Below are positions 6,348-63,422 of a stretch of DNA of 64,000 nucleotides, in pieces. The notes below the pieces were generated by a model that saw only the letters and a program-made list of their open reading frames with translations, made no database searches and was not told where the DNA came from. Source of the stretch: Bacteroidota bacterium (lineage in GTDB: Bacteria > Bacteroidota > Ignavibacteria > Kryptoniales > JAKASW01); NCBI GenBank assembly GCA_021825585.1, contig JAKAGT010000022.1, forward strand, positions 2,807 to 66,806, read 5' to 3'. The first letter of the stretch is position 1. The number at the start of each line of letters is the position of its first letter. A program made the position numbers and the translations under genes.

Positions 6348-6440
6348 AACAGGTCAAAAGCAAGAAGGTCTCAGAGGGATCCGCGAGAAACTGACAGTGT
6401 TTGATTAACGATCGTTTAACGGCCCTTTTATCCTTTCCTT

Positions 6441-6468
6441 TTTTGACTTTTGACCTTTGAATTTTGAC
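6441..6468. repeat. four tandem heptamers TTTTGAC / TTTTGAC / CTTTGAA / TTTTGAC in a convergent intergenic region
   Basis: Read directly at 6441-6468. The block also contains CTTTTGACCT (6447-6456), the exact reverse complement of AGGTCAAAAG at 6351-6360. Confidence 0.7.
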
Positions 6469-6475
6469 GTCCTAT

Positions 6476-7723
6476 TCACTCATACCGTAGAGACTCTATT
6501 GGATCCACGCTCGCCGCCTTGTATGCCGGGTAAACACCGAATATCACACCGACAAGCGAGCAGACGATAAGGCCGATCATAGCCCAATCAAGAGGAAATG
6601 CCGCCCTCATGTGCATCGCCAATGCAGCGAGATTGCCTCCGATAAGGCCAAGCAAGACGCCGACTATGCCTCCTACCTCGCAAAGCACAATCGCTTCGAG
6701 CATGAATTGGGTCAGGATATTGCGCTTCGTAGCACCAATGGATTTCCTCACGCCTATTTCTCGGGTTCGTTCGGTCACACCCACGAGCATTATGTTCATT
6801 ATTCCGACGCCGGCCGCAAGAAGCGCTATCGCACTTACCACAATAGCTCCTATCCTGATGTAGAAAGTCAGGTGATTGAACTGGTCGATCAGTGAAGCAT
6901 TGGAAATCATTTCGAAATCATCCGGCTTTCGCGGCGGGACATTCCTGATCGCCCGGAGAATCGCCTCCACCTGGTCTTCGGTCTCGGCAAAAGTTTTCTG
7001 ACTACTTGACTGAACGTAAATATCAAGACTCCTTCGTTCTCCGTAACGGGCAAAGAAAGTAGTAAGCGGTACCATCATGTATGGGTTTCCTTCACCGAGC
7101 ACTGTCCCCTGGTTCTTTATGACGCCTACGACGGTGTAACCGATTCCATCCACTTTGACCTGCTGTCCAAGCGGATCGGAATGCGGGAAAAGAGCGCCGG
7201 CCATGTTCGGGTCGATTACACAGGCGAGACGTGAAACGTCGAGGTCACTCTGGGTTATCGCCCTGCCTTCACCGATCGGTTTGTCTTGCGCGGTGAAAAT
7301 CTCGGGCGTGACGCCCATCAGGTCCACATTCGGGTTCGTTGATTGTTGGCCGTGTACGGCGATCATTCCGCCCTTGTCTGCCATGGCACCCACGCTGCTC
7401 GCCATAGTCGCCCGATTTCTCAGTTTGATCACATCCTCATACGTGAGATCCTTCCGGTTCCAGTACTTCCTCCACCACCCCGGCCCACCGGCGTGGAAGA
7501 CCGGAAATTTCGTTATTTCGAACGTGTCTGAGCCTAGTGAGTTGAGTCTGCTCTCGATTGAGTTCTGCATAACCCGCATCGCGGTGGTCACAGCTATGAT
7601 TGAGAAAACCCCCACGACGATGCCGAGAAGAGTCAGGATAGACCGCAGCTTGTTCGAGCGGATGGCTGCAAGCGCCATCAGGAAACTTTCCGACCATTCC
7701 GACCAGATGATGTTCCTATTCAT
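6476..7723 (-). CDS. MacB-type ABC transporter permease (FtsX domain + periplasmic domain), B-type, pair 3
   Basis: 415 aa. N-terminal TM, ~230-aa periplasmic segment, then a C-terminal 3-TM FtsX module (LLAAGVGIMNIMLVGVTERTREIGVRKSIGATKRNIL). Ends AASVDPIESLRYE. The start overlaps the A3 stop by 8 nt. Confidence 0.85.
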   Translation of the reverse strand: MNRNIIWSEWSESFLMALAAIRSNKLRSILTLLGIVVGVFSIIAVTTAMRVMQNSIESRLNSLGSDTFEITKFPVFHAGGPGWWRKYWNRKDLTYEDVIKLRNRATMASSVGAMADKGGMIAVHGQQSTNPNVDLMGVTPEIFTAQDKPIGEGRAITQSDLDVSRLACVIDPNMAGALFPHSDPLGQQVKVDGIGYTVVGVIKNQGTVLGEGNPYMMVPLTTFFARYGERRSLDIYVQSSSQKTFAETEDQVEAILRAIRNVPPRKPDDFEMISNASLIDQFNHLTFYIRIGAIVVSAIALLAAGVGIMNIMLVGVTERTREIGVRKSIGATKRNILTQFMLEAIVLCEVGGIVGVLLGLIGGNLAALAMHMRAAFPLDWAMIGLIVCSLVGVIFGVYPAYKAASVDPIESLRYE

Positions 7724-8939
7724 ATCTCAGCGCCTCCACCGGATCGAGTTTAGAGGCCCTTGATGCAGGTACAATGCCTGAGATCACGCCGACCGCAAGC
7801 GATATCAAGATGCCAAGGAACGCAAGAGAGATCGGCATCGACGTCGGAAGGAACTTGTCGACAAGCATGCTCAGCGGGTAAGAGAACGCGAGTCCTATCA
7901 ATCCTCCTCCCAGACAGATGAGCGACGATTCGATCAGGAACTGTACCAGTATGGTTCGCCTCTTTGCGCCGAGTGCTTTCCTGATTCCGATTTCTTTTGT
8001 CCTTTCCGTCACGCTCACGAACATGATGTTCATTATGCCGATGCCTCCCACAAAGAGCGACAGCGCAGTAATAAACAGCCCCACCGCGCCTATTATGGCT
8101 GCGATTCTGTCGAAGGCGCTCGTAAGGAGGCTCTGCTCGTTTATCGAGAAATCGTCCTTCTGAAACGGCGACAACCCTCTAATCTTCCTCATTATCCCGC
8201 GAAGCTCCTCCTTTGCATTTGCCAGCTCTTTCGGGTTCGCGACGCGCGCCTCGATACTCGGAAAGAAATGTCTCCCGTAAATATTGCGGAACTGATCTAT
8301 AGGTATGATGACTTCGTTGTCGAGGCTGAACATTCCCATAAAGCTTCCCTGCTTGCTTCTCACGCCGATGACCCTGAACGATAGCCCATCTATTTTGATG
8401 GTACTTCCGATCGGGTCCCGGTTTGGAAACAGTTGATTGGCGACATCCGCACCGAGAATCGTGACCGGCATGTCCCCACTGGCTTCCATATCCGTGAAAA
8501 AGCGTCCCTCGCTGAAATCCATCTTCGCGACGTAGGCGTAATCGGCAGTCGTCCCTTCGACCAAAACATTTTGCGCCGACCTGTTTCTATATCCGATTGT
8601 CCCGAGTCTCTGGACTACAGGGGCAACGGCCGCGAACAAGGTCCCTTCTTTCTTGATCTCATTGACGTAGTAAACGTGAATCCTGCGGCGGTCCCTGTAT
8701 TTCCACCACAAACCGTTGTTGAGCCACGGCCACTTCTGGACATACAGCACGTCCGCGCCGATCGATGAAATGCTCTTATTGAATGCCTGCGTAAGCCCGT
8801 CTATGGCCGAGCCCATTAATGTAACCGAGACGATTCCTATAATGATGCCGAGCATGGTCAGTACCGCTCTTACTTTGTTTGCCATCAGAGCTGCGAAGGA
8901 GAGCTTGAACCCCTCCTTGATTTCAAGGCCAAACGTCAT
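7716..8939 (-). CDS. MacB-type ABC transporter permease, A-type, pair 3
   Basis: 407 aa. Begins MTFGLEIKEG. FtsX block [31 protein letters not shown]. Ends [13 protein letters not shown]. Confidence 0.85.
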   Translation of the reverse strand: MTFGLEIKEGFKLSFAALMANKVRAVLTMLGIIIGIVSVTLMGSAIDGLTQAFNKSISSIGADVLYVQKWPWLNNGLWWKYRDRRRIHVYYVNEIKKEGTLFAAVAPVVQRLGTIGYRNRSAQNVLVEGTTADYAYVAKMDFSEGRFFTDMEASGDMPVTILGADVANQLFPNRDPIGSTIKIDGLSFRVIGVRSKQGSFMGMFSLDNEVIIPIDQFRNIYGRHFFPSIEARVANPKELANAKEELRGIMRKIRGLSPFQKDDFSINEQSLLTSAFDRIAAIIGAVGLFITALSLFVGGIGIMNIMFVSVTERTKEIGIRKALGAKRRTILVQFLIESSLICLGGGLIGLAFSYPLSMLVDKFLPTSMPISLAFLGILISLAVGVISGIVPASRASKLDPVEALRYE

Positions 8940-9194
8940 TTCAATATGTCCCTTTCTGATTCAACGCCACTACCTTTTTCGCACGCGCCGAAGCGTACTT
9001 CACCTTCGGTCTTTCACAATCGCCTGAAAAACTCAGATGCTATCCTAACACACCGATTGCGTCCGAGGTTTCTCGCGAGTGCGAACAACGGGGTTCTTTA
9101 ATTCGATTTGAATTTCGAAAAGCTTCCATCTCCTCGAGCGAAGAGATTCGTCCGTCAGGTAGTGCTTTCGCAATCATGTTTGTTGGTTCTTCTG

Positions 9195-9225
9195 AAAAAA
9201 ATTGGAGAGCTCCGAGAAGCTCCCG
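9195..9225 (-). terminator. candidate rho-independent terminator after permease pair 2
   Basis: The minus strand reads CGGGAGCT-TCTCGG-AGCTCTCC, an 8-bp stem with one G-U pair and a 6-nt loop. It is followed by AATTTTTTT. It lies ~63 nt downstream of the B2 stop (9288). Confidence 0.55.
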
Positions 9226-9287
9226 CCAGTTAAATGGTCCTTCTAATATCTCAAGAATTCAATCCCGCACACGGCGTCATTTCGTCC

Positions 9288-10520
9288 CTACTCGTATCTC
9301 AGGGACTCGATCGGGTCAACGCTGGCCGCCTTGTAGGCAGGGTAGACGCCGAATATCACTCCGACTAGCGAGCAGACAATGAGGCCGATTGTGGCCCAAT
9401 CGACCGGGAATACCGCCTGAAGATGAAGTATTACCGCCGCAAGGTTGCCGCCGATCAAACCGAGCAGGATGCCGGCGATTCCCCCGACTTCACAGAGCAA
9501 TACCGCCTCGAGCAGGAACTGGATCAGGATATTCCGCTTTGTGGCACCGACTGATTTTCTGATGCCGATCTCTCTCGTCCTTTCGGTCACGCCAACAAGC
9601 ATAATGTTCATTATGCCGACTCCGGCGGCAAGCAAGGCAATCGCGCTCACCGCGATGGCGCCGATTCTTACATAGAAGGTAACTTCGTTGAACTGGCCGA
9701 CTAACGACGCATTTGAAATGATGTCGAAATCGTTATCCTTTCCCGGTGGAACTTTTCTTATGGCCCGGAGGATACCTATCGTTTGTTCCTGTGCTTGCGC
9801 CAGGGCATCCTGGCTTACGGCTTGCACGTAAATGTTCATGCTCCTTTCCTTGCCGTACCTGGCGAAGAAAGTCGTGATTGGGACTTCCAGGTAATATTGC
9901 TGACCGATCGTGATACCCTGATCCTCGATGACTCCAACTACGATATATCCTATTCCGCCGACCGTGACAACTGCTCCCAATGGATCGGAATGAACAAACA
10001 GGGCCTTCGCCAGGTTGGGATCGAGGACGCACACGCGGCTTCCCGTTTCAATATCGCTTTCGCTTATTCCTCTTCCCTCAGTCATCTTCTCGTTGCGGGC
10101 AGCGGAAATATCCGGCGTCACTCCAAGCAAGCTCACGTTAGGATTTGTTTTCTCGTCGCGATACTGCACTATCTTTCCTCCAGTCCCGGTCAACACTCCG
10201 ACGCTCTTCGCCAATGTTGCTCTCTCCTTAAGAGCGATTGCCTGCTCAAAGGTTATGTCCTTTCGATTCCTGTACTTGTCCCAGTCGGTGAAGAAGGCGG
10301 GGAATTTCCGTACCATGAACACATTCGATCCCATCGAGGTCAGTTTCGATTCGACAAAGCTCTGGAGTACTCTCATTGCAGTGTTGACGGCAATGATGGA
10401 AAAGACCCCGACGACGATTCCCAAAAGGGTCAAACTGGAACGCAGCTTGTTAGACCGAATCGCAAAAAGAGCCATTGAAAGGCTTTCACTCCATTCGGAA
10501 ACGATAAAACTCTTATTCAT
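9288..10520 (-). CDS. MacB-type ABC transporter permease, B-type, pair 2
   Basis: 410 aa. Begins MNKSFIVSEWSES and ends AASVDPIESLRYE. Same FtsX block as B1/B3. It lacks the HAGGPGWW segment of B1/B3 (FPAFFTDWDKYRNRKD). Confidence 0.85.
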   Translation of the reverse strand: MNKSFIVSEWSESLSMALFAIRSNKLRSSLTLLGIVVGVFSIIAVNTAMRVLQSFVESKLTSMGSNVFMVRKFPAFFTDWDKYRNRKDITFEQAIALKERATLAKSVGVLTGTGGKIVQYRDEKTNPNVSLLGVTPDISAARNEKMTEGRGISESDIETGSRVCVLDPNLAKALFVHSDPLGAVVTVGGIGYIVVGVIEDQGITIGQQYYLEVPITTFFARYGKERSMNIYVQAVSQDALAQAQEQTIGILRAIRKVPPGKDNDFDIISNASLVGQFNEVTFYVRIGAIAVSAIALLAAGVGIMNIMLVGVTERTREIGIRKSVGATKRNILIQFLLEAVLLCEVGGIAGILLGLIGGNLAAVILHLQAVFPVDWATIGLIVCSLVGVIFGVYPAYKAASVDPIESLRYE

Positions 10521-10628
10521 GCATCAACATCCCCCATCGCCGGCAAGGACAAACTGCTGAAGATGCAAAATGCGGGAAGAAGGCAAGCATCGGTGGAAAC
10601 GTCCCTGCCATCTAAATCTCTCATGTTT

Positions 10629-11855
10629 CTACTCATAGCGCAGAGCCTCTACCGGATCAAGTTTAGATGCCCTTAATGCGGGAACAATCCCAGATACAAC
10701 GCCAACGACAAGCGAGATGATTATTCCCGTTACGGCAATCGAGATGGGCATCGCCGTGGGCAGAAAATTATCCAGAAGCTCGCTCAATGGATAAGAAAAC
10801 GCGAGCCCAAGTATTCCCCCTCCGAGACAGATGAGCGTTGCCTCGGTCAGGAACTGCATCAGAATGGTCCGCCTTCTCGCGCCGAGCGCTTTCCTTATTC
10901 CTATCTCCTTCGTACGCTCCGTCACGCTCACGAACATGATATTCATTATTCCGATGCCGCCTACAAAGAGCGATAGCGCAGTGACAAATAATCCAATAGC
11001 ACCGACATACAAGATCATCTGGTCGAAGGCATTTGTAAATGCGGTCTGTTGATTGATCGAAAAATCATCCTCCTCACCGGGCGAAAGGCCCCTGATTTTT
11101 CGCATTAATCCGCGCACCTCTTCCTTTGCATTATCCAGATCAACATCCTCAGCCGCGCGCACGCTGATCGTTGCGGAGAAGCGGCTCCCAAATATCTTCT
11201 CGAACTGACCAATAGGCACGTACACAACATTGTCCAGGCTGAACAATCCCAGAACACTTCCCTGAGTACTTCTGATGCCGATCACACGAAACGGGAGCCC
11301 GTTTATCCTGATCATCTTCCCGAGCGGATCCTGATTTGGAAAAAGAAGGTTCGCTACATCCCGCCCGATCACAGCGATCGGCCTGCTGCCGCGGGATTCT
11401 TCTTCGCCGAAAAATCTTCCTCCATCAAAACTCATGCTTGTCACATAAGCGTAATCAGAAGTCGTCCCATCGATATCGACATTGTTTGCCACTTTGTTTC
11501 CGTACCTGACCTTTGCATTTCTGTCGGCTTCCGGCGCGACTGCAGCAACAAGCGTCGCCTCTTCTCTGATTCTGTCGGCGTATTCGGCCTTCAGTGGTTT
11601 ACGATTGCGGTATTTCCACCACTCGCCGCCGCCAAATCCCCACTGCCATTTGTCGACGTATAGTACGTCGGCGCCCATGAATGCAAAACTCTTGTTGAAT
11701 TCCCTCGTCAGTCCTTCAATTGCGGCCCCCATAAGTGTGACCGAAACGATGCCGATTATGATCCCCAACATGGTAAGAACCGCGCGGCCCTTGTTTGCCA
11801 TCAGCGCGGCGAAAGAAAGCACAAGCCCTTCTTTGAACTCAGTCCCAAAAGTCAT
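10629..11855 (-). CDS. MacB-type ABC transporter permease, A-type, pair 2
   Basis: 408 aa. Begins MTFGTEFKEG and ends [13 protein letters not shown]. Identical [31 protein letters not shown] block. A 108-nt spacer separates it from B2, whereas the other two pairs overlap by 8 nt. Confidence 0.85.
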   Translation of the reverse strand: MTFGTEFKEGLVLSFAALMANKGRAVLTMLGIIIGIVSVTLMGAAIEGLTREFNKSFAFMGADVLYVDKWQWGFGGGEWWKYRNRKPLKAEYADRIREEATLVAAVAPEADRNAKVRYGNKVANNVDIDGTTSDYAYVTSMSFDGGRFFGEEESRGSRPIAVIGRDVANLLFPNQDPLGKMIRINGLPFRVIGIRSTQGSVLGLFSLDNVVYVPIGQFEKIFGSRFSATISVRAAEDVDLDNAKEEVRGLMRKIRGLSPGEEDDFSINQQTAFTNAFDQMILYVGAIGLFVTALSLFVGGIGIMNIMFVSVTERTKEIGIRKALGARRRTILMQFLTEATLICLGGGILGLAFSYPLSELLDNFLPTAMPISIAVTGIIISLVVGVVSGIVPALRASKLDPVEALRYE

Positions 11856-12342
11856 GCTTCACCATCCCGTATTAGTCTGCCACAAAATTTGGCCGTCTGT
11901 CCGCTTCCCACATTTTATTCCCCTCGCACTGCGTATTTCAGGCGGAATCGGAACGTTGCGGGAGACCGATCTCGCATTGTGGAATGCGCGGGTGCCGTCA
12001 TGATTCAACGGGCGGAAATCCAGAACCCTCGTCGATTTTCGCGAGAGTAAACTGTCCTCTGCAGGACAAGTGTCTGATAATTTCATCTGCATGGCCGCAT
12101 CATTCATGAATAATGATCAAGAACTTCATCATAGTCACTTCCCGGCAATGTTTCCGGAAAAAATAACCTAAAGTCCCGGCCCTACTCCAGCTCTATCTAT
12201 GGAAGCCTTGCCGGTCCCTCGGATGATAACCGGCAAGGTACGAAATCATCCATGGATCAATCTCCGGACCCGGTACTCCGGCTTTTGAGATTCTCAATCC
12301 CTTTTCAAAGACTTGATTCCATGGTTCGGGGTCTCATCATTT

Positions 12343-13590
12343 CTATTCATATCTCAACGATTCGATCGGATCGACGCTGGCCGCCTTATATGCGGGGTAA
12401 ACGCCGAACGTGACGCCGACTATTGAGCAGACTACCAGCCCAATCACCGCCCAATCCATCGGGAAGGCCGCATGCATATGTAACGCAAGAGCTGCAAGGT
12501 TGCCGCCGATGAGGCCGAGCAAGATGCCTGCCACTCCCCCGACTTCACACAGCACTATGGCTTCGAGCAAGAATTGTGTCAGGATATTGCGCTTGGTTGC
12601 ACCGACGGATTTCCTTACCCCGATCTCACGGGTCCGTTCCGTCACTCCGACCAGCATTATGTTCATAATACCGACACCGGCGGCAAGCAGTGCAATTGCA
12701 CTCACAACTATCGCACCAATTCTTATGTAGAAGGTCATCTGGTTGAATTGATCTATCAATGATGCGTTGGTGGTCAATTCGAAGTCATCATCCTTGCCGG
12801 GGGGCACTCCCCTGATTGCCCTGAGAATTGCCTCTGTCTGTTCCTGCGCGGCTGTGAAGTCTTTCTGGTCGATTGCCTGGACGTATATATCGAGACTCCT
12901 TTCCTTGCCGTATCTGGCGAAGAAAGTGGTAATTGGAACGATCATGTACGGCGAGCCTTCACCAACAACATTCCCCAGGTCCTTTATCGTGCCGATCACA
13001 CGATAGCCTATTCCATCCAGTTTTATCTCGGCGCCCAACGGGTCCGAATGTGGAAAGAGGGCCTTGATTAGATTAGGATCGATTACACAAACCAGCCTCC
13101 CGATTTCGAGATCGCTCTGGCTGATCGCTCGTCCTTCGTCGATCTCCTTGTTCTGAGCTGCAAAAATGTCGGGAGTGACTCCGATAATGTCCACATTGGG
13201 GTTTGTCTGTTCGGCCTTATAGGTAACGATTTTGCCGCCTCTGTCTGCTTCAGCCCCGACACTGCTTGCAAGCGTTGCCCGCTCTTTCAATTTGAGAACC
13301 TGTTCGTATGTCAGATCCTTACGGTTCCTGTATTTCCGCCACCACCCCGGCCCTCCGGCATGGAACACCGGAAATTTTGTAATCATGAATACATTCGAAC
13401 CTAAAGAGTTCAATTCGCTCTCGATGTTGTTCTGCAGGACACGCATAGCGGTCGTGACGGCAATGATCGAAAATACCCCGATCACGATTCCGAGGAGCGT
13501 CAATATCGAGCGGAGTTTATTTGAACGGATAGCCGCAAGAGCCATCATGAAACTCTCGGACCATTCGGACCAAAGGAAAGTTCTATTCAT
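12343..13590 (-). CDS. MacB-type ABC transporter permease, B-type, pair 1
   Basis: The ORF track gives 12343..13656. I place the start at Met23 ([13 protein letters not shown], complement of 13590-13588). That matches the B2/B3 N-termini and reproduces the 8-nt overlap with the A-type stop seen in pair 3. Confidence 0.85.
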   Translation of the reverse strand: MNRTFLWSEWSESFMMALAAIRSNKLRSILTLLGIVIGVFSIIAVTTAMRVLQNNIESELNSLGSNVFMITKFPVFHAGGPGWWRKYRNRKDLTYEQVLKLKERATLASSVGAEADRGGKIVTYKAEQTNPNVDIIGVTPDIFAAQNKEIDEGRAISQSDLEIGRLVCVIDPNLIKALFPHSDPLGAEIKLDGIGYRVIGTIKDLGNVVGEGSPYMIVPITTFFARYGKERSLDIYVQAIDQKDFTAAQEQTEAILRAIRGVPPGKDDDFELTTNASLIDQFNQMTFYIRIGAIVVSAIALLAAGVGIMNIMLVGVTERTREIGVRKSVGATKRNILTQFLLEAIVLCEVGGVAGILLGLIGGNLAALALHMHAAFPMDWAVIGLVVCSIVGVTFGVYPAYKAASVDPIESLRYE

Positions 13591-14806
13591 ACCGGAGTGC
13601 CTCCACAGGATCCAGTTTTGACGCCCTGGATGCCGGGATAATCCCCGAGACCACACCGACTGCGAGCGACAACAGGATCCCTATAAACGCAAGCGAGATC
13701 GGCATCGCGGTAGGCAGGAACTTGTCGACGAGCATGCTTAATGGATAGGAGAATGCCAGCCCGATGAGCCCGCCGCCCAGACAAATCAATGACGATTCGA
13801 TAAGGAACTGTATGAGAATCGTGCGCCTCTTTGCTCCGAGTGCTTTCCTGATGCCGATTTCTTTTGTACGCTCGGTCACGCTCACGAACATAATATTCAT
13901 TATGCCGATCCCGCCGACAAATAGCGAAAGAGCAGTCACAAATATCCCGACTCCTCCGATGATACCCGCTATCTTGTTGAATGCATTCGTCAGAAGGTCC
14001 TGCTGGTTGATCGAGAAATCGTCCTCTTGAGAAGGAGACAATCCTCTTATCTTCCTCATGATTCCACGGAGTTCTTCCGTGGCATTGTCCATGTTCTTCG
14101 GATCGGAAACGCGCGCTTCTATCGTAGGATGAAAGTGTGTTCCGTAAATGTTCTGGAATTGCCCTATCGGAATAATCACCTGGTTATCGAGGCTGAACAT
14201 TCCGAGGAAACTCCCCTGCTTGCTCCTGACGCCGATTATTCTGAACGGCAGGCCGTTTACTTTTATCATCTTTCCGACCGGATCCTGATTTGGAAAAAGC
14301 TGGTCCGCAACGTCGGTCCCGACGACAGCAAGCGGCCTGTCTCCTCTGGATTCCACGTCCGTAAAGAATCGTCCCTCTTTGAAGTTCATATTGGAGACAT
14401 AAACCAGATCAGCGGTAGTTCCCTGGACCTGCACGTTGTTTGCCGTCCGGTTTCCATACTTGATTGTCCCGAGCCTTCCGACAACGGGAGCAACCGCTGC
14501 GAAAAGCGTGGCATCTCTCCTGATCTTGTCCGCATAACCTATCTCCAGGTCCCGGCGGTTTCGAAACTTCCACCACTCGTCGTGGCTCATCCAGGGCCAT
14601 TTCTGAACATAGAGGACGTCGGCTCCGATCGAAGATATGCTCGCGTCAAACGCCTTACCAAGCCCCGTGATTGCAGCACCCATTAATGTAACCGAGACTA
14701 TGCCGATGATTATCCCAAGCATTGTCAGCACGGCTCTGATCTTATTGGCATTCAGTGCAGCAAATGAGAGCTTGAATCCTTCTTTGAATTCAGCCCCGAA
14801 TGTCAT
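13583..14806 (-). CDS. MacB-type ABC transporter permease, A-type, pair 1
   Basis: 407 aa. Begins [10 protein letters not shown] and ends [13 protein letters not shown]. The start overlaps the ATPase stop by 4 nt. Confidence 0.85.
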
Positions 14807-15537
14807 GCCTTCACCTGCTCCGCCGGATGGCTCACCTTCACCTTCCCGTTCCTCTCGATGGGGAGATCACTCTCGACCATTCCGTCCTTGATTCTGATTA
14901 TCCTCTTGGCATGTTCCGCAATATATTCTTCATGAGTGACGAGTATGATTGTGTTTCCCTTTGCATGGAGCTCCTCGAAGAAAATCATAATCTCGTCGCC
15001 TGTTTTCGAATCCAGGTTTCCCGTCGGTTCGTCTGCGAGGATAATAGAGGGATTATTGATGAGCGCCCGGGCAATGGCAACGCGCTGGCGCTGACCGCCG
15101 GACAGCTCATTCGGCTTGTGATGGATACGCTCGCCGAGTCCGACCATTTCAAGAGTAGACCTGGCCCTCTCCTTGCGCTCCGACACAGGAACGCCGCTGT
15201 ATATCAACGGGAGTTCGACATTATGAAGCGCGTCTGAGCGGGGAATCAGGTTGAATGTCTGGAAAACGAAGCCAATTCCCTGATTACGGATCTTGGCAAG
15301 ATCATTGTCGTCCATTTCACTGACGTTGGTGCCGTCAAACAAATACAACCCGCTCGTCGGCGTGTCCAGGCATCCGAGTATGTTCATCAACGTCGTCTTG
15401 CCCGAGCCCGAAGGTCCCATGATGGCGACATATTCGCCGCGCTCAATCGATATCGAAATGTCCTTAAGCGCCTGTACCTGGACCTCGGCACCCATGTCAT
15501 ACACTTTGTTTACCTTGACTAGTTCAATGACTTTCAT
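14803..15537 (-). CDS. ABC transporter ATP-binding protein (MacB/LolD-type)
   Basis: 244 aa. Walker [11 protein letters not shown]-loop, signature [15 protein letters not shown], Walker [14 protein letters not shown]-loop LVTHE. Confidence 0.9.
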
Positions 15538-57231: not shown

Positions 57232-57501
57232 TCCGGGGGAGAATTCCCGGAGACAGTCTCACATGTCAGAAGGGCGCTGCTTCTCCGGGCAGTTGAGCGG
57301 CACTCGATTGCAGGATGAACGGGCATCCGGCTCACAGCATCTGCCGGTTCTCTTGCAATCACACTGACATTTTCCTAACGTCGGCTTCAATCACTTACTC
57401 ACGATCAAGCACCACCCGCCCCGCCTTCTTCTCGGTGGCTCGTGGAGACCGATGAGTTAAAATCCGGCCGGCGGCAGCAGGGTCGGCACAGCCATCCGAG
57501 A

Positions 57502-57624
57502 AGTAACCCCTCACTTATGGTTTCTCGCCAAGCCGCAAAGCTCGCAAGGCGAACCGCTCGTCAACATTTCTTTGCGTTCTTGGCGCCTTTGCGAGAGAAA
57601 TAACCCTTTCAGTGAGGCATTACT
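57502..57624 (+). other. ~123-nt imperfect inverted repeat with mutually exclusive internal pairings
   Basis: Outer helices: AGTAA (57502-06) with TTACT (57620-24); CCTCACT (57509-15) with AGTGAGG (57611-17); TTTCTCGC (57521-28) with GCGAGAGA (57591-98). The segment CGCCTTTGCGAG (57584-95) can instead pair with CTCGCAAGGCG (57541-51). CGCCAAG (57526-32) can pair with CTTGGCG (57579-85). Confidence 0.3.
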
Positions 57625-57642
57625 CCGAGAATAGGATTTCCG

Positions 57643-57671
57643 TTGACAGCGTCATCGCAACACATTATTTT
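57643..57671 (+). promoter_or_regulatory. candidate sigma-70-type promoter of the TetR-led operon
   Basis: TTGACA (57643-48), a 17-nt spacer, then TATTTT (57666-71). It lies 30 nt upstream of the GTG start. Confidence 0.4.
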
Positions 57672-57679
57672 ATTCATAG

Positions 57680-57693
57680 ACCGACCGGTCGGT
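57680..57693. promoter_or_regulatory. perfect 14-bp palindrome, candidate TetR operator
   Basis: ACCGACC|GGTCGGT is an exact reverse-complement palindrome. It lies between the candidate -10 box and the TetR start codon, the classical autorepression geometry. Confidence 0.45.
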
Positions 57694-57700
57694 TTATAAC

Positions 57701-58321
57701 GTGAGTGATGAAGTGGCAAGGAAAGAGAACATACAAAATATCGCCAGGCGGAAGGAGCAGATCATCAAAGCTGCAATTACCGCCTTTGCACGAACCGGCC
57801 TGAAAGGTACCAGCATGAACGACATCGTTCGGGAGTCCGGCCTGAGCAAGGGTGCGATATACTGGTATTACAAGAGCAAAGATGAGCTGATATCGGACCT
57901 GCTCAAGGAATTCTTTGACCCAGAAGAGATCAAGAAGGTCGGAGAGGTGCTTGTTACGGGTACTGCTCTTGAGCGGCTGGAGAAATTCATCGGCTATACA
58001 ATTGAAGAAATGAATAAGATGCAGCGGTTCAGACCGGTCCTCCAGGAGTTGTTCGTAATAGCCTCAAGAGATCAGAAAATCAGAAAAATGGCAAAGAGGG
58101 ACTTCCGGGTCGGTGTCGCGCTTCTGCAGTCGGTCATCGAGTATGGCGTGAAGAGCAAGGAATTCCGAAAAGTAGACCCCAACATGGTCGCGATCGCGAT
58201 CTTTGAGATAATTGAGGGCACCGCCCTCTTCTGGTCGCTTGATCTTATGGATGTTGATTTTGAAAAACAGATGCGCGAAGGGATCAACCTGATTTTAGAC
58301 GGGATTAAGGTGGAAAAATGA
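57701..58321 (+). CDS. TetR/AcrR-family transcriptional regulator
   Basis: 206 aa with a GTG start. HTH region GLKGTSMNDIVRESGLSKGAIYWYYKSKDEL. Confidence 0.85.
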   Translation: MSDEVARKENIQNIARRKEQIIKAAITAFARTGLKGTSMNDIVRESGLSKGAIYWYYKSKDELISDLLKEFFDPEEIKKVGEVLVTGTALERLEKFIGYTIEEMNKMQRFRPVLQELFVIASRDQKIRKMAKRDFRVGVALLQSVIEYGVKSKEFRKVDPNMVAIAIFEIIEGTALFWSLDLMDVDFEKQMREGINLILDGIKVEK

Positions 58322-59163
58322 GCCATAAAGTAAGTACCAAGTCTCAAATAGCAAGCTGCGGCCATGTTCCAGATGTGAATTGTCGAGAATCACGTCAGCG
58401 CTTGACATCTCATTTTTTCAAAATCTGGATGTTGTTTGGGATCTGGGCGTTCGCACTGGGGGTTTCCAGCACCGGCTATGCGCAGAATGCCATGCAAATC
58501 ATACAAAGGGCTGAGGATGCAATAAAGGGAAAAGTCTCAAGCCATTCCGTCATGGAGATGACTATACGATCTCCCGACTACACAAGGACCATGAAGATGG
58601 AAAGCTGGACAAGCGGGACTTCGAAGGCGCTCGTCAGGATACTCTCCCCCGCTCGCGAAGCGGGCAACCGCACGCTTAAATTGGGAAACGACATCTGGAT
58701 GTATCTCAGGAACACCGAGACGACGATACGCATCCCTCCCTCTATGATGCTGCAGTCATGGAACGGCTCCGATTACACTTACGATGATATGGTTCGCGAG
58801 GAGACTCTTACAAAAGATTACGACATTACCCTCACAGGAACCGAACAAATAGGCGGCGTCGGTTGCTGGACACTCCAGCTAATTCCAAAGCCGAATGCGC
58901 CGGTAGTATGGGGAAAGATCATATACCGGGTACGGAAGGCCGACGATCTTCCCGAGCAGGTGGAATACTTTGACGAAAGAGGGAAGCTCATGCGGACGAT
59001 GGTAATGAGTGACTTCAAGGTCATGGGGGGAAGGATGATCCCCACCGTATGGACGATGTACAACTCAGACAGAACGCACTCGACCGAAATAAAAATGGAC
59101 GAAGCGTCGTTCGATGTCAGAATCCCGGCTTCGATCTTCTCGCTGAAGGAGTTAGAAAGGTGA
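58318..59163 (+). CDS. outer-membrane lipoprotein-sorting (LolA-like) protein
   Basis: 281 aa from the ATG that overlaps the TetR stop (ATGA). An internal Met38 (58429, MLFGIWAFALGVSSTGYAQNA) gives a clean signal peptide and may be the real start. The body (MEMTIRSPDYTRTMKMESWTSGTSKALVRILSPAREAGNRTLKLGNDIWMYLRNTETTIRIPPSMMLQSWNGSDYTYDDMVRE) matches the LolA-like family that accompanies FtsX permeases. Confidence 0.7.
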   Translation: MSHKVSTKSQIASCGHVPDVNCRESRQRLTSHFFKIWMLFGIWAFALGVSSTGYAQNAMQIIQRAEDAIKGKVSSHSVMEMTIRSPDYTRTMKMESWTSGTSKALVRILSPAREAGNRTLKLGNDIWMYLRNTETTIRIPPSMMLQSWNGSDYTYDDMVREETLTKDYDITLTGTEQIGGVGCWTLQLIPKPNAPVVWGKIIYRVRKADDLPEQVEYFDERGKLMRTMVMSDFKVMGGRMIPTVWTMYNSDRTHSTEIKMDEASFDVRIPASIFSLKELER

Positions 59164-59205
59164 CCTCGTCATCTCTCAAGTTCGGGCGCGTGCTTGTTAT
59201 CTCAC

Positions 59206-59435
59206 GCTTTCAGGGTGAATTGAGCTTTCTTACGAGTGAGGTCGGGACGGTGTCCCGGCCTCATGGATTCGACCCTTTCAGGGTCGGGTGCATATCGGAA
59301 TTACCATTTGCTTATACCACTGAACATCACCCTGAAGCTCCTCTAGTCAATTCTTACCCCGAAGGGGCAACATATTCCAGCGAGGGCGAAGCCCTCGCAC
59401 GCAATGTAAGAGGAACACCAACCCTGAAAGGGTTG
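59206..59435 (+). other. hairpin-dense intergenic element (candidate structured leader/inter-cistronic RNA or REP-like hairpin cluster)
   Basis: Long-range helix: TTCAGGGTGA (59209-18) with TCACCCTGAA (59327-36), 10 bp, plus 2 more pairs after a 1-nt bulge. It encloses a 10-bp hairpin GAGGTCGGGA-CGGTG-TCCCGGCCTC (59238-62) and the hairpin GACCCT-TTC-AGGGTC (59271-85, extendable to 10 bp with G-U pairs). Three GAA-looped hairpins follow: CCCC-GAA-GGGG (59357-67), GCGAGGGC-GAA-GCCCTCGC (59380-98) and CAACCCT-GAA-AGGGTTG (59419-35). Confidence 0.4.
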
Positions 59436-59469
59436 AAGAAACGAGTGTATCGATCAGGAACTCCAACAA

Positions 59470-60699
59470 ATGAAGCTGCTGATTAACATCGCCTGGCGCA
59501 GTCTCTGGCGGAACCGAAGGCGTTCACTACTCGTCATCGCCGCGATCGCCTTCGCGGTCATGTTTGCAATTGTCCGGCTCGGATTCGATGAGGGGACATT
59601 CGCACTTTCGCTCAGGACAGCGGTCAGGTCTTCAACCGGTTACCTGCAAATCCAGAAGATCGGGTACAACGACAACCCAACCCTGCAGAAGAGTTTCCCC
59701 ATTACGCCGGAATTAGAGTCGATACTTAAATCCGATCCGGAAATCGACGGCAGTTCGCCGAGAATACAATCGGGCGGCCTCATCAGTTTCCGTAACCACT
59801 CTCTCGGAGCGCTGATCACCGGAGTCGAACCGAAGACGGAAGAGCTGATCACAGATTTTCCCGCAAAAATCATCCAGGGGAGGTTCCTCGATGACGACAG
59901 CACGCCCGACATCGTCGTGGGATATAAGCTCCTCAGGAACCTCGGCGCGAGTGTCGGGGATTCGGTCGTCATCCTCGCGCAGGGGTTCGACGGCGTGCTC
60001 GGAAACATGTTCGTGCATATCGTGGGAACATTCAGGACGGGTTCGGATGAATTCGACCGCACCGGCGCTTTCATGAGCGTGCCGGTCATGCAGAATTTCC
60101 TTGCAATGGGCAACGACGTAAATGCGATTGCACTTTCGGCAGATGATCCGGCCGATGTCGGTAGGATCGTGAGAACGCTCGATCCGGTTCTTAAACCCGC
60201 CGGACTGGTTGCCGTGCCGTGGCAGGAACTTCTTCCGCAGCTTCAACAGACAATGGGTTTCAGTCACGCGGCGCACATACTCTTCCTCACCATACTGTTC
60301 GCCGTCGTCGGCTTCGGAATCCTGAACGCCCTGCTCATGTCTGTGACGGAGCGCTTCCGGGAATTCGGCGTCATGCTCTCGATCGGGATGTCGAACTCAA
60401 GGCTCGCGCTCACTACGGCCATGGAGATGTTTTTTATGATCGTAATAGGATTCACGATAGGCAACGCGGCCGGCGCGGCAATCAACTACCACTTCATCGA
60501 GCACCCGATCGTTCTGGGAGGCAACGTGGGAAAGTTCGTGCGTGAATGGGGATTCCAGCCGATAGTCCCCTCCTCCCTCTCGCCCGGCATATTTGTCACC
60601 GCAGGAACGATAGTGCTCGCGATCTCCGCGGCGGCCGCAGTCTATCCTCTTTGGCGCGTTGCCCGACTCGAAGCGCTGAAAGGAATAAGGTACACTTGA
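59470..60699 (+). CDS. LolC/E-like FtsX-family ABC permease, C-type, pair 1
   Basis: 409 aa. MKLLINIAWRSLWRNRRRS start with TM1. A periplasmic domain follows, then the FtsX module GFGILNALLMSVTERFREFGVMLSIGM. Ends LKGIRYT. Confidence 0.85.
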   Translation: MKLLINIAWRSLWRNRRRSLLVIAAIAFAVMFAIVRLGFDEGTFALSLRTAVRSSTGYLQIQKIGYNDNPTLQKSFPITPELESILKSDPEIDGSSPRIQSGGLISFRNHSLGALITGVEPKTEELITDFPAKIIQGRFLDDDSTPDIVVGYKLLRNLGASVGDSVVILAQGFDGVLGNMFVHIVGTFRTGSDEFDRTGAFMSVPVMQNFLAMGNDVNAIALSADDPADVGRIVRTLDPVLKPAGLVAVPWQELLPQLQQTMGFSHAAHILFLTILFAVVGFGILNALLMSVTERFREFGVMLSIGMSNSRLALTTAMEMFFMIVIGFTIGNAAGAAINYHFIEHPIVLGGNVGKFVREWGFQPIVPSSLSPGIFVTAGTIVLAISAAAAVYPLWRVARLEALKGIRYT

Positions 60700-60717
60700 A
60701 ATGAAATTCCAATTTAG

Positions 60718-60827
60718 AATTTGTTTAGAGCTTAGAGTTTCGTGCTTAGAATTTCTTCCAGTGGCACACTGGATGGTTATCTGATGATAAGCAGGATTGC
60801 CTGGCGCAACATATTGCGGAACAAGAG
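60718..60827 (+). repeat. 110-nt block, copy 1, near-identical to 63313-63422
   Basis: Direct comparison gives 109/110 identical; the only difference is C at 60731 versus T at 63326. The block covers 66 nt of non-coding leader plus the first 44 nt of the D-type permease CDS. It contains the hairpin CCAGTG-GCA-CACTGG (60758-72) and four TTAGA motifs. Confidence 0.9.
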
Positions 60828-62016
60828 GAGATCGTTCATACTGATTACGTCGATCGTGGTCGGTGTGCTCGGGCTGGTTTTCACCGAAGGCTTCGCGGTC
60901 GGTATGATGCAGCAGATGCTTACCAACCAGATCGGAGCCGACGCGGGCTACATTCAGATTCACAAAAAGGGGTACCAATCCGACCCGACGCTTGAAAACA
61001 GCATGACCGACCCCGCTGAGGTACGGAGTGTACTAAGAAGCGACAGCGCGAGTCTGGACTACTCCGAGCGTCTAAGGGTTTTCGGCCTTATCAGCAGCGC
61101 GTACAATTCCTATGGTGTTTCGATTGTCGGAATCGTCCCGAATGAAGAGAAGAAGATCACCACGATTTCGGAATACGTTGCGAAGGGATCATATCTTACC
61201 GGCAAGCCGGGACAAATACTTATCAGCGCCTCGATGGCGGAGAAGCTCAAAGTCGGTCTCGGAGACAAAGTGGTTATCATGGCATCACAGATGAACGGGA
61301 GCATCGGTTCCGAAGCGTGCCGGGTTACGGGGATATTCGAAACTTTCAATTCGGGTTTCGACCAGTCTCATGTTTACATCCCCATCCTGACGGCCGACCA
61401 GATGCTGAACGCTGACGGGCTCGTCTCGGAATTCGTAGTGAACCCGATCAACCCGAACGACATGTCGTCGATCGCTTCCAGCATAAGGGATGGAATAGCC
61501 GGCCTCCCGGAAAACGCCGGGAAATACGAGGTGCTCACTTATGAACAGATGCTGCCGCTGCTTGTCGCACAGCTCGCGCTGTACAAGCAGGCCCTTTACC
61601 TCGTCGCGGGACTAATCGCGTTCGCGCTGATTTTCGGAATCATAGATACCATGCTCATGTCGGTCATGGAACGGACACACGAGTTCGGCGTTTCGATGGC
61701 GATCGGGATGTCGAACGGCAAAATATTCACGATGGTAATGACCGAAGCGTTTTATCTCGCAATCACCGGAACGGCGATGGGACTGGCTGCGTCGTATGGA
61801 GTGTTTTTGCCGCTGTCGCATTCGGGATGGGACCTGTCGATGTTTTCGGCAAGCCTGAAGTCTATCGGGATCGGCAGTATAATTTACCCGGTCCTCGATG
61901 CCTCTTCCGTTGTCCAGACAGTACTCATCATTCCGATTGCCACTCTCCTCGGTGCCGTGTATCCGGCGTTGAAAGCGATCAGGCTGCAGCCGGTGGAAGC
62001 GATCAGGGCAACGTGA
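60784..62016 (+). CDS. LolC/E-like FtsX-family ABC permease, D-type, pair 1
   Basis: The track ORF starts at GTG 60742. I favour ATG 60784 (MISRIAWRNILRNKRRS), the canonical FtsX-permease N-terminus. FtsX module FGIIDTMLMSVMERTHEFGVSMAIGM. Ends LQPVEAIRAT. Confidence 0.8.
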   Translation: MISRIAWRNILRNKRRSFILITSIVVGVLGLVFTEGFAVGMMQQMLTNQIGADAGYIQIHKKGYQSDPTLENSMTDPAEVRSVLRSDSASLDYSERLRVFGLISSAYNSYGVSIVGIVPNEEKKITTISEYVAKGSYLTGKPGQILISASMAEKLKVGLGDKVVIMASQMNGSIGSEACRVTGIFETFNSGFDQSHVYIPILTADQMLNADGLVSEFVVNPINPNDMSSIASSIRDGIAGLPENAGKYEVLTYEQMLPLLVAQLALYKQALYLVAGLIAFALIFGIIDTMLMSVMERTHEFGVSMAIGMSNGKIFTMVMTEAFYLAITGTAMGLAASYGVFLPLSHSGWDLSMFSASLKSIGIGSIIYPVLDASSVVQTVLIIPIATLLGAVYPALKAIRLQPVEAIRAT

Positions 62017-62057: not shown

Positions 62058-63302
62058 ATGATGCTGATCCGATTGGCGTGGCGTAGTTTGTGGCGGAACT
62101 GGAGAAGGTCGCTCATAGCGATGTCGGCGGTGATCTTCGCGATAATGCTGTCCATCATACAGCGCGGGATGCAATACGGTACGTACGCGGAGACAATCAG
62201 GACGGCGGTGCGTGCCTCCACCGGTTATCTCCAGATCCAGAAAGAGGGCTACAACAAGAACCCGACTCTTCAGAGAAGCTTCGTGATGACGCTGCAGATC
62301 GAAACGGCGCTGAGAGACTCACCATCAATCGACGGAAGCTCTCCAAGAATAGAAGCCGATGCGCTTCTGAGCTATCGCGACCAGTCGTTTGGAGCCATGA
62401 TAATGGGAGTGGCGCCGAAGTCGGAGAACGAAGTCACCGACTTTCCTGAGAAAATAAGAAGCGGGCGTTTCCTTTCTGCTGATTCAGCCGGCAGCGACAA
62501 CATGGCCGCGGAAATCGTTGTCGGCGATAAGCTTCTCCAGAATCTCGGTGCCCGGGTTGGAGACTCGGTAGTCGTCCTGGCCCATGGATATGACGGGTTA
62601 CTCGGTAACATGTTCGCGAAAATCGTCGGTACTTTCAGGACAGGTTCCAACGAATTCGACCGTATGGGCGTCTTCATGAACATCTCGGACCTGCAGAGTT
62701 TTCTCAGCATGGGGAACAGGATTAATGCCGTCGCAGTCTCGGTACGAAACCCAAACTATCTGGAGAATGCAGCGTACAGTCTCAACCGGGTTCTCAAGCC
62801 GCAAGGTCTGGTCGCCCTCACATGGCAGGACCTGCTGCCACAGTTGAAGCAGATGATCGATCTGGACAATTCCAGCGGGGTACTGTACATAATAATCCTT
62901 CTATTTGTGGTAGGCTTCGGTATACTGAACACGGTCCTCATGTCGATAACCGAACGGTTCAGGGAATATGGCGTAATGCTTTCTCTCGGCATGTCGCAGG
63001 AGAGGCTTGTAGAGGCCGTTGCGCTCGAGGTGTTCTTCATGCTCGTCATCGGATTCATAATCGGCAACGGGATAGGCGCTGCGGTGAATTCGTACTGGGT
63101 GAGCCACCCGATAGTACTCGGCGGGGACCTGGCGAAGCTTTACGAAGAGTATGGTTTTGCGCCGGTACTCGTGTCTTCGCTGTCATCCAAGGTCTTCCTG
63201 GATTCGAGCCTTACGATATTCGGCATCTCGATGGTCTCGGCTGTATATCCGCTCTGGCGCGTACTGAGGCTTGAGCCACTCAAAGGAATAAGGCACACCT
63301 GA
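62058..63302 (+). CDS. LolC/E-like FtsX-family ABC permease, C-type, pair 2
   Basis: 414 aa. MMLIRLAWRSLWRNWRRS start. Collinear with C1 and, by eye, a bit over half identical. Ends LKGIRHT. Confidence 0.85.
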   Translation: MMLIRLAWRSLWRNWRRSLIAMSAVIFAIMLSIIQRGMQYGTYAETIRTAVRASTGYLQIQKEGYNKNPTLQRSFVMTLQIETALRDSPSIDGSSPRIEADALLSYRDQSFGAMIMGVAPKSENEVTDFPEKIRSGRFLSADSAGSDNMAAEIVVGDKLLQNLGARVGDSVVVLAHGYDGLLGNMFAKIVGTFRTGSNEFDRMGVFMNISDLQSFLSMGNRINAVAVSVRNPNYLENAAYSLNRVLKPQGLVALTWQDLLPQLKQMIDLDNSSGVLYIIILLFVVGFGILNTVLMSITERFREYGVMLSLGMSQERLVEAVALEVFFMLVIGFIIGNGIGAAVNSYWVSHPIVLGGDLAKLYEEYGFAPVLVSSLSSKVFLDSSLTIFGISMVSAVYPLWRVLRLEPLKGIRHT

Positions 63303-63312
63303 TGAGATTCGA

Positions 63313-63422
63313 AATTTGTTTAGAGTTTAGAGTTTCGTGCTTAGAATTTCTTCCAGTGGCACACTGGATGGTTATCTGATGATAAGCAGGATTGCCTGGC
63401 GCAACATATTGCGGAACAAGAG
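63313..63422 (+). repeat. 110-nt block, copy 2 (see 60718-60827)
   Basis: Same sequence as copy 1 with one C/T difference. The hairpin is at 63353-63367. Confidence 0.9.

Follow-up and report, generated by a model that had tools for sequence, protein, structure and literature searches.

A hairpin-rich 306-nt insert between a LolA-like gene and an FtsX-type permease gene of Kryptoniota, and a candidate relay open reading frame that crosses it

What is a densely hairpinned spacer of 306 nucleotides (nt) doing between two genes of the same operon? The question is raised by a 64,000-nt stretch of contig JAKAGT010000022.1 from a Bacteroidota bacterium (assembly GCA_021825585.1; hereafter the window, 64 kb), in which such a spacer separates the gene for a LolA-like periplasmic protein from FtsX1, the first of a series of FtsX/MacB_PCD permease genes. 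An earlier note, made from the letters of the window, had proposed a structured RNA here and had listed as explanations a cis-regulatory leader, an intercistronic element that sets the ratio of LolA-like protein to permease, and a cluster of repetitive extragenic palindromic (REP) or bacterial interspersed mosaic element (BIME) type. On balance, the 306 nt are probably a lineage-restricted palindromic insert, similar to REP elements and to mycobacterial interspersed repetitive units (MIRUs), which is tolerated by means of an open reading frame (ORF) that relays ribosomes across it and the hairpins of which are under selection.

The junction between the two genes was compared across orthologous loci. 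A search of a genome collection with the LolA-like protein returned 22 Kryptoniota/Bacteroidota loci (71 to 85% identity), 20 of which include the downstream gene. In 14 of these 20, the LolA-like stop and the FtsX1 start lie 2 to 6 nt apart; the 3' end of the LolA-like gene in the insert-free relatives includes a GGAG motif, shortly before the start of FtsX1. The junction was equally tight in further relatives fetched by protein identity, and additional LolA-like proteins (P0003, P0004, P0009, P0010, P0012, P0017, and P0025) yielded no further insert of the window type. The 306 nt are thus an insertion and not a conserved leader, and the ancestral junction was presumably translationally coupled. 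Homologues of the insert were found only in the same species, as two haplotypes, and in one other metagenome-assembled genome (MAG), L008. The second haplotype (L033, L042, and the left part of L005) differs from the window at 46 to 50 of the 306 positions, without indels. L005 is a recombinant, which has the L033 haplotype up to about 59407 and is nearly identical to the window in the remainder (compared over 58995-60835); the block that holds its breakpoint (Table 1) also contains the motif AGGAA, 10 nt before the FtsX1 ATG. L008 has kept the first ~100 nt of the insert, including hairpins A and B (local alignment z = 32; hairpins are lettered as in Table 1). Beside this retained module, L008 (4790-6619) has lost most of FtsX1 together with the N-terminal part of FtsX2, and a 476-amino-acid (aa) ORF (5103-6533) takes their place; the insert frame there extends into what is left of FtsX2 and shares 10 nt with the start of the 476-aa ORF. 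Other loci carry inserts of 54 to 207 nt at the same junction with no significant similarity to that of the window (z ≤2.7), and those of L007 and L012 resemble each other (z = 10). MAFFT had suggested that the L010, L011, and L015 inserts were decayed homologues, which was withdrawn after shuffled local alignments (z ≤2.7).

How, then, could translation of the permease survive such an insertion? One study reports that a spacing of ~20 nt nearly abolishes termination-reinitiation coupling (PMC10666635), so an insertion into a 5-nt junction should uncouple the permease unless a frame carries ribosomes across. A 108-codon bridging ORF does begin on the LolA-like stop codon, span the six hairpins, and terminate 17 nt into FtsX1. 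The earlier note had given this ORF as 59049-59486, from an internal ATG; the informative start is the GTG at 59160, the overlap of which with the LolA-like stop had gone unnoticed. L033 has ATGA in place of GTGA at this start, through a substitution that is silent in the LolA-like gene. No stop codon interrupts the bridging frame (+2) anywhere in the spacer of the window, L033, L005, or L042, and L008 retains this frame in its homologous part. The earlier note had held that translation of this frame would speak against a structured RNA, and the comparative evidence points largely to translation, since the frame is open in all haplotypes and in L008, begins on the LolA-like stop codon, and has counterparts in the other inserts at this junction.

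The bridging frame gains its meaning from the recurrence of the same architecture across junction inserts. All six of the other inserts at the LolA-like/FtsX1 junction contain a bridging ORF (seven of seven insert types with the window), ending from 12 nt before to 14 nt after the FtsX1 start, and these six have no significant similarity to the window or to each other, except for L007 and L012. In dinucleotide shuffles, the probability of the architecture was 0.04 for the window insert and 0.09, 0.08, 0.13, 0.09, 0.81, and 0.08 for the others, the value of 0.81 belonging to the 54-nt insert of L010; the joint probability is ~3e-6 without L054 and ~2e-7 with it. The spacers between FtsX1 and FtsX2 (42 to 228 nt) behave similarly: an ORF of the form "MKFxI..." is present in 10 of 12, its start lying 2 nt beyond the FtsX1 stop and its end ≤8 nt from the FtsX2 start. 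The window itself has a second and a third bridging ORF farther along the operon; the third is a paralogue of the second, and both contain the identical hairpin TCCAGTG-GCA-CACTGGA (60757-73 and 63352-68). Related MAGs also carry, at different operon junctions, a long inverted-repeat hairpin element rich in CCAAA/TTTGG; its reading frame is the bridging one in every case ("...VWNLxFGAxxF"), and at the DNA level it is similar to the 5' end of the LolA-like gene, which encodes the signal peptide.

The hairpins form the second part of the question. Hairpins B to F were found where the earlier note had placed them, the loop of B being read as GGT. Three copies of a 13-nt palindrome core, ACCCT-TTC-AGGGT, had gone unremarked; two are in the forward orientation, at 59204 (one mismatch) and 59272, and one is inverted, at 59421. 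Hairpins C and F constitute a 20-nt inverted repeat with 90% complementarity. The insert has a minimum free energy (MFE) of -112.6 kcal/mol, with z scores of -4.75 on the + strand and -4.28 on the - strand relative to shuffles and -4.06 with independently made shuffles. Of the 23 distinct perfect hairpins in the window (stem of at least 7 bp, loop of 3 to 6 nt), 3 fall inside the 306 nt, where 0.096 are expected (Poisson P = 1.4e-4). The earlier statement that this hairpin density has no match in the window holds for perfect GC-rich stems only; in folding strength, the hemerythrin-TetR intergenic region (57232-57700) equals the insert, with a z score of -4.35, and an Rfam search of that region gave no match. 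The sense strand clearly gives the more stable fold for hairpins A, B, and C (for B, -23 kcal/mol on the + strand versus -17.7 on the - strand), since each G-U pair turns into an A-C mismatch on the antisense strand. Total MFE was uninformative as an indicator of strand, the minus strand being slightly better overall and the sense strand being favored by A to C alone.

Comparison of the two haplotypes indicates which parts of the insert have been kept. Changes fell on 4 of 88 stem positions versus 42 of 218 non-stem positions (Fisher p = 6.7e-4). Divergence of the spacer up to 59407 is ~17%, and that of the flanking third codon positions is 19% in the LolA-like gene and 14% in FtsX1; the linkers thus appear to evolve at about the neutral rate. 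Hairpin A is perfect (TCACCCT-TTC-AGGGTGA) in L033, L005, and L008, and the window-type strains L043, L046, and L047 depart from the window only at 59206, its sole mismatch, so the G found there in the window is a strain polymorphism; to judge from the position, these strains presumably carry the restoring C. In L008, hairpin B has kept its pairing by way of one compensatory double change, from G-C to A-U, and one change from G-U to A-U; hairpin C is weakened in the L033 haplotype. Taken together, the conservation of the stems argues that the hairpins are under selection in this lineage. The long-range helix drawn by the earlier note fared differently. Its 10-nt complementarity (59209-18 with 59327-36) exists in the window sequence, but 4 of the 10 positions of the 59327-36 arm are changed in L033 and L005, with 4 of 10 pairs lost without compensation; the helix is broken in two of the three covering sequences, so that the three-way junction built on it is not conserved and the local hairpin A is conserved instead. 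Covariation amounted to one compensatory pair, with a score reached in 130 of 500 shuffles (4 distinct sequences).

The mechanism that we favor would proceed as follows. Ribosomes ending the LolA-like gene would re-initiate at the GTG that overlaps its TGA, with AAGGAG 8 nt upstream, and would translate through the six hairpins; termination 17 nt inside FtsX1, near its ATG, would keep FtsX1 coupled to upstream translation. The insert would persist through its open frame (59160-59486), with the peptide itself having no function. On the sense mRNA, the hairpins would most likely slow or shed ribosomes, block 3'-exonucleases, or both, and would thereby favor the LolA-like product over the permeases. 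Of the explanations listed by the earlier note, an intercistronic element that sets this ratio comes closest to our conclusion, although the effect on the ratio is itself a prediction. More tentatively, and with somewhat less than even confidence, an insert-and-bridge rule can be suggested: DNA that enters the tightly coupled junctions of Kryptoniota MacB-type operons may survive only as a relay ORF, which would generalize the MIRU case to another phylum and to unrelated hairpin elements, with the 306-nt insert as the longest known case and doubling as a selected brake on the ratio of periplasmic protein to permease.

Other explanations have to be weighed against this relay. A conserved cis-regulatory RNA, namely a riboswitch or protein-binding leader organized on the three-way junction and controlling the permeases, would accord with the strong predicted structure and with the position upstream of the permease genes. 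However, no Rfam model reached its gathering threshold in the whole window, in agreement with the earlier note, which had recognized no RNA family; the best sub-threshold match, and the only Rfam model scoring at all, was Acido-Lenti-1 (RF01687; minus strand, 59355-59398, 14.9 bits versus 37, E = 4.2), which shares two adjacent GC-rich hairpins but lies on the antisense strand here and scores no better than chance. Fourteen of the 20 loci lack the element, the sister haplotype has a disrupted junction helix, the covariation is not significant, and the linkers evolve at about a neutral rate, all of which largely refutes a regulatory leader and leaves it with very little credence. Nor was an intrinsic terminator or attenuator found when a GC-rich hairpin followed by a U-run was sought on the sense strand of 59164-59469; the earlier observation that no T-run follows the hairpins extends to the whole + strand of the insert. 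We also regard as very unlikely the view that the bridging ORF is a genuine, fast-evolving small protein gene (108 aa) working with the transporter. Its start and stop overlaps are typical of operon genes, AAGGAG stands upstream, the frame has been kept open in three lineages, and the small ORFs of L007 and L012 are homologues of each other, with a hydrophobic segment at the end of each. Against this, the ratio of nonsynonymous to synonymous polymorphism (pN/pS) is 0.61 for the peptide versus 0.16 for FtsX1 and 0.08 for the LolA-like protein, and changes by codon position (13/14/19) show no third-position excess. The product had no Pfam match and no homologue in either protein library, which included 5.8 billion clustered proteins; two HMMER hits to tandem-repeat, adhesin-like proteins were driven by repeats, had no BLASTP alignment, and were discarded. 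Its AlphaFold pLDDT is 33, and the ORFs of different inserts are unrelated in sequence. The bridging-ORF peptide is unconstrained and is not a conserved protein.

Two further explanations take the palindromes as the essential feature and the open frame as incidental or irrelevant. In one, the insert is a REP/BIME-like cluster of selfish palindromes, mobilized by a REP-associated tyrosine transposase (RAYT) or an IS200-type enzyme, or of host-factor sites. The form fits, as the earlier note had suspected: the core is present three times in both orientations, the loops of its copies are all of 3 nt, TTC or GAA, as expected for DNA palindromes, and the insert varies in presence among relatives. 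The mobile surroundings also fit, with the CCAAA/TTTGG element at several junctions in relatives and, 1.6 kb upstream of the insert in the same species, a separate polymorphic element resembling a miniature inverted-repeat transposable element (MITE), which has an 8-bp target duplication. The copy number does not fit. Neither the 64-kb window nor ~200 kb of DNA from related Kryptoniota contained a second copy of any of the insert hairpins. A metagenome scan with the 21-mer TCTCACCCTTTCAGGGTGAAT around hairpin A recovered a single orthologue from this lineage (L033); a match in L032 is a chance one inside a NuoN-like gene. The 21-mer also occurs in three unrelated high-GC metagenome contexts (L028 887-1051; L029 567-587, equal to L031 2578-2598; and L030 9862-9882), and in all of them it sits among other GC-rich hairpins with TTC/GAA triloops; the cluster in L028 comprises CCCAGGGC-GAA-GCCCTGGG, GCCCT-GAA-AGGGC (core at 929), TCACCCT-TTC-AGGGTGA, CCCAGGGC-TTC-GCCCTGGG, and TGAGCCC-TCC-GGGCTCA. 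These recurrences could reflect homology or convergence, the palindrome and its flanks carrying only ~14 nt of information. A Pfam scan of ten window ORFs found no transposase, and a REP-like cluster leaves unexplained the bridging frame present in every insert; we therefore consider it unlikely. In the other explanation, the 306 nt are an untranslated intercistronic element for mRNA stabilization or processing, of the malE-malF REP type, the hairpins of which would stop 3'-exonucleases or guide cleavage by RNases, with the result that the LolA-like segment would outlive the permease segment. Preferential conservation of the stems, the sense-strand advantage of hairpins A to C, the lack of a terminator-like U-run, and a gene order (periplasmic protein, then permeases) as in the classic REP case are consistent with a stabilizer. 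It is nonetheless improbable, since the element is missing from most orthologous operons and hence dispensable for operon function, the bridging ORF recurs whether or not an insert is structured, and an untranslated gap of 306 nt would abolish the ancestral coupling.

Several points weigh against the relay reading itself. The frame was open by chance in 25% of simulations when the two haplotypes alone were considered, so the case rests on recurrence across loci, some of which perhaps share ancestry. The evidence for a relay comes from comparison of sequences, and gene callers have never annotated the bridging ORF. Its 17-nt overlap with FtsX1 exceeds the canonical -4/-1 overlap, FtsX1 could initiate independently by means of its own AGGAA motif, and AAGGAG is a putative Shine-Dalgarno site, as is any use of such sites in this phylum. 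The inserts of L007, L012, and L008 fold with z scores of about -3, whereas those of L011, L015, and L054 are unremarkably structured (z of +0.3, +0.7, and -0.5), so hairpins are not required for bridging, and the function suggested for them here is the weakest step of the proposal. In addition, the insert may be of mobile origin, but this is unproven given that no second copy was found in the 64 kb plus ~200 kb of relatives and that it has no recognizable terminal inverted repeats (TIRs) or target duplication. BLAST searches of the 306 nt against plasmids and phages returned no match, and a pattern scan of viral contigs for the insert returned 0 hits.

Table 1. Features of the locus and of related loci (window numbering unless a locus is named)
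Feature	Positions	Strand	Remarks
MITE-like element, 121 nt	57503-57623 (with flanks, 57495-57631)		TIRs GTAACCCCTCACT / AGTGAGGCATTAC (GTAAYNCCTCACT); 8-bp direct repeat TCCGAGAA
Probable TetR operator	57680-93		Perfect 14-bp palindrome ACCGACCGGTCGGT, directly after the -10 element
TetR regulator gene	57701-58321	+	Gene calls
LolA_like / TP_0789-like periplasmic protein gene	58318-59163	+	Upstream cistron; Pfam PF17131, E = 5.7e-54
AAGGAG, Shine-Dalgarno-like motif	59146-59151	+	8 nt upstream of the bridging-ORF GTG; sequence reading
Bridging (relay) ORF, 108 codons	59160-59486	+	GTG overlaps LolA-like TGA (GTGA); stop at 59484-86
Insert (spacer), 306 nt	59164-59469	+	From junction comparison with orthologous loci
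Hairpin A, TCACGCT-TTC-AGGGTGA	59202-59218	+	One mismatch in the window (59206); first ACCCT-TTC-AGGGT copy
Hairpin B, GAGGTCGGGAC-GGT-GTCCCGGCCTC	59238-59262	+	11 bp including one G-U; strongest stem
Hairpin C, CGACCCT-TTC-AGGGTCG	59270-59286	+	7 perfect bp; G-U extension to 59263-93; second core copy
TCACCCTGAA	59327-59336	+	Half-copy of inverted hairpin A; 3' arm of the proposed long-range helix
Hairpin D, CCCC-GAA-GGGG	59357-59367	+	Invariant in 3 sequences
Hairpin E, GCGAGGGC-GAA-GCCCTCGC	59380-59398	+	Center GCGAAGC
53-nt block	59408-59460	+	Identical in both haplotypes, flanks divergent; holds hairpin F and the L005 breakpoint
Hairpin F, CAACCCT-GAA-AGGGTTG	59419-59435	+	Third core copy, inverted
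FtsX1, first FtsX / MacB_PCD permease gene	59470-60699	+	Downstream cistron; Pfam PF02687, PF12704
Second bridging ORF, MKFQFRICLELRVSCLEFLPVAHWMVI (stop)	60701-60784	+	2 nt past FtsX1 stop; TGATG overlap with FtsX2 ATG at 60784
FtsX2	60742/60784-62016	+	
FtsX3	62058-63302	+	
Third bridging ORF, MRFEICLEFRVSCLEFLPVAHWMVI (stop)	63302-63379	+	TGATG overlaps with FtsX3 stop and FtsX4 start
Bridging ORF, L010			Start, ATGA overlap with LolA-like stop; end, 14 nt inside FtsX1
Bridging ORF, L015			Start, ATGA overlap; end, TAAgATG
Bridging ORF, L012			Start, GTGATG; end, ATGA overlap with FtsX1 start
Bridging ORF, L011			Start, ATG 15 nt past stop; end, ATGA overlap with FtsX1 start
Bridging ORF, L007			Start, ATG 3 nt past stop; end, TAG 9 nt before start
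Bridging ORF, L054			Start, GTGA overlap; end, TGAtATG
CCAAA/TTTGG element	L006 4073-4109, 6164-6197; L007 1774-1916; L012 4769-4943; L027 FtsX1-FtsX2 spacer		

The window matches MAG contigs labeled Bacteroidetes or Candidatus Kryptoniota. The TetR-controlled operon comprises, all in the same orientation, the TetR regulator gene, the LolA-like gene, the 306-nt spacer, and the permease genes, together with a 46-aa ORF and an ABC ATPase gene. The TetR and LolA-like genes share 4 nt where they meet, the true start of FtsX2 is probably the ATG at 60784 rather than the GTG at 60742, and the fourth permease gene, FtsX4, extends past the window edge. A sigma-70-like promoter lies in the hemerythrin-TetR intergenic region (TTGACA at 57643, a 17-nt spacer, and TATTTT). 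That the spacer palindromes are an array of TetR operators was considered and rejected: the operator-like palindrome at the promoter differs from them in sequence, the hexamer GGTCGG alone being in common and the spacing being different. The MITE-like element in the same region folds at -42.9 kcal/mol. The window, L001/L044, L003, and L043 carry it, whereas L046 and L042 of the same species lack it and have a single copy of TCCGAGAA. It therefore represents a recent, still polymorphic insertion immediately upstream of the operon promoter; its similarity to the 306-nt spacer was not significant and was set aside. Elsewhere in the window, a second ABC-type cluster on the minus strand (6476-14806) consists of about six ORFs of ~410 aa, probably FtsX-type permeases too, and is accompanied by an ABC ATPase at 14803-15537; its long spacers (8940-9287 and 11856-12342) are unremarkable in structure (z of -1.8 and -0.9).

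These results remove a riboswitch or structured-RNA candidate and put a testable mechanism in its place. Coupled operon junctions may be able to absorb hundreds of bases of structured foreign DNA if one frame stays open. If this is general, long "intergenic" operon gaps in uncultivated phyla could be relay ORFs and not noncoding regulators, and hairpin-rich relay ORFs would offer a natural system for relating mRNA structure in a translated spacer to the stoichiometry of transporter subunits.

Known systems resemble the insert in part. Like MITEs and REPIN doublets, it forms hairpins, looks nonautonomous, and is present or absent among close relatives; in contrast to them, it is a 306-nt block in which no terminal inverted repeats or target duplication can be recognized. 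With the REP/BIME elements of enterobacteria, it shares short, GC-rich, imperfect palindromes that are clustered in both orientations; hairpins A to F, spanning 11 to 25 nt, are of the clustered, alternating kind by which REP/BIME palindromes (roughly 20 to 40 nt) are recognized. REPs are high-copy and dispersed and stand in untranslated spacers, whereas the insert has no second copy in the 64 kb plus ~200 kb covered and is spanned by an ORF, and no RAYT gene was seen in the 64-kb window, of which ten ORFs were scanned against Pfam. The resemblance is closest to the malE-malF REP, since the insert likewise lies between a periplasmic-component gene and ABC-type permease genes, lacks a terminator U-run, and has conserved stems compatible with mRNA protection. 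REP sequences in 3' untranslated regions stabilize translationally active mRNA and raised MalE expression (PMC4942690), and REP-containing mRNAs are targets of RNase R and PNPase (PMC12320835). In the MIRU system, according to PMC12548453 (citing Supply 1997), insertion takes place at start codons and an internal ORF is coupled at a -4-nt spacing, and a frame that carries translation across the insert has been proposed there as well. The insert differs from MIRUs in that it is known from a single locus, measures 306 nt, contains six GC-rich triloop hairpins, has a downstream overlap of 17 nt rather than 4, belongs to another phylum, and has no sequence relationship to them. MIRUs are short units of about 46 to 101 bp, often in tandem and at many loci. 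Even so, the MIRU arrangement recurs here at the junction of co-oriented genes within an operon, with an ORF that overlaps or adjoins the stop codon before it and the start codon after it (-4 nt upstream in this case), with little expected effect on downstream translation, and with an encoded peptide that appears to be irrelevant in both.

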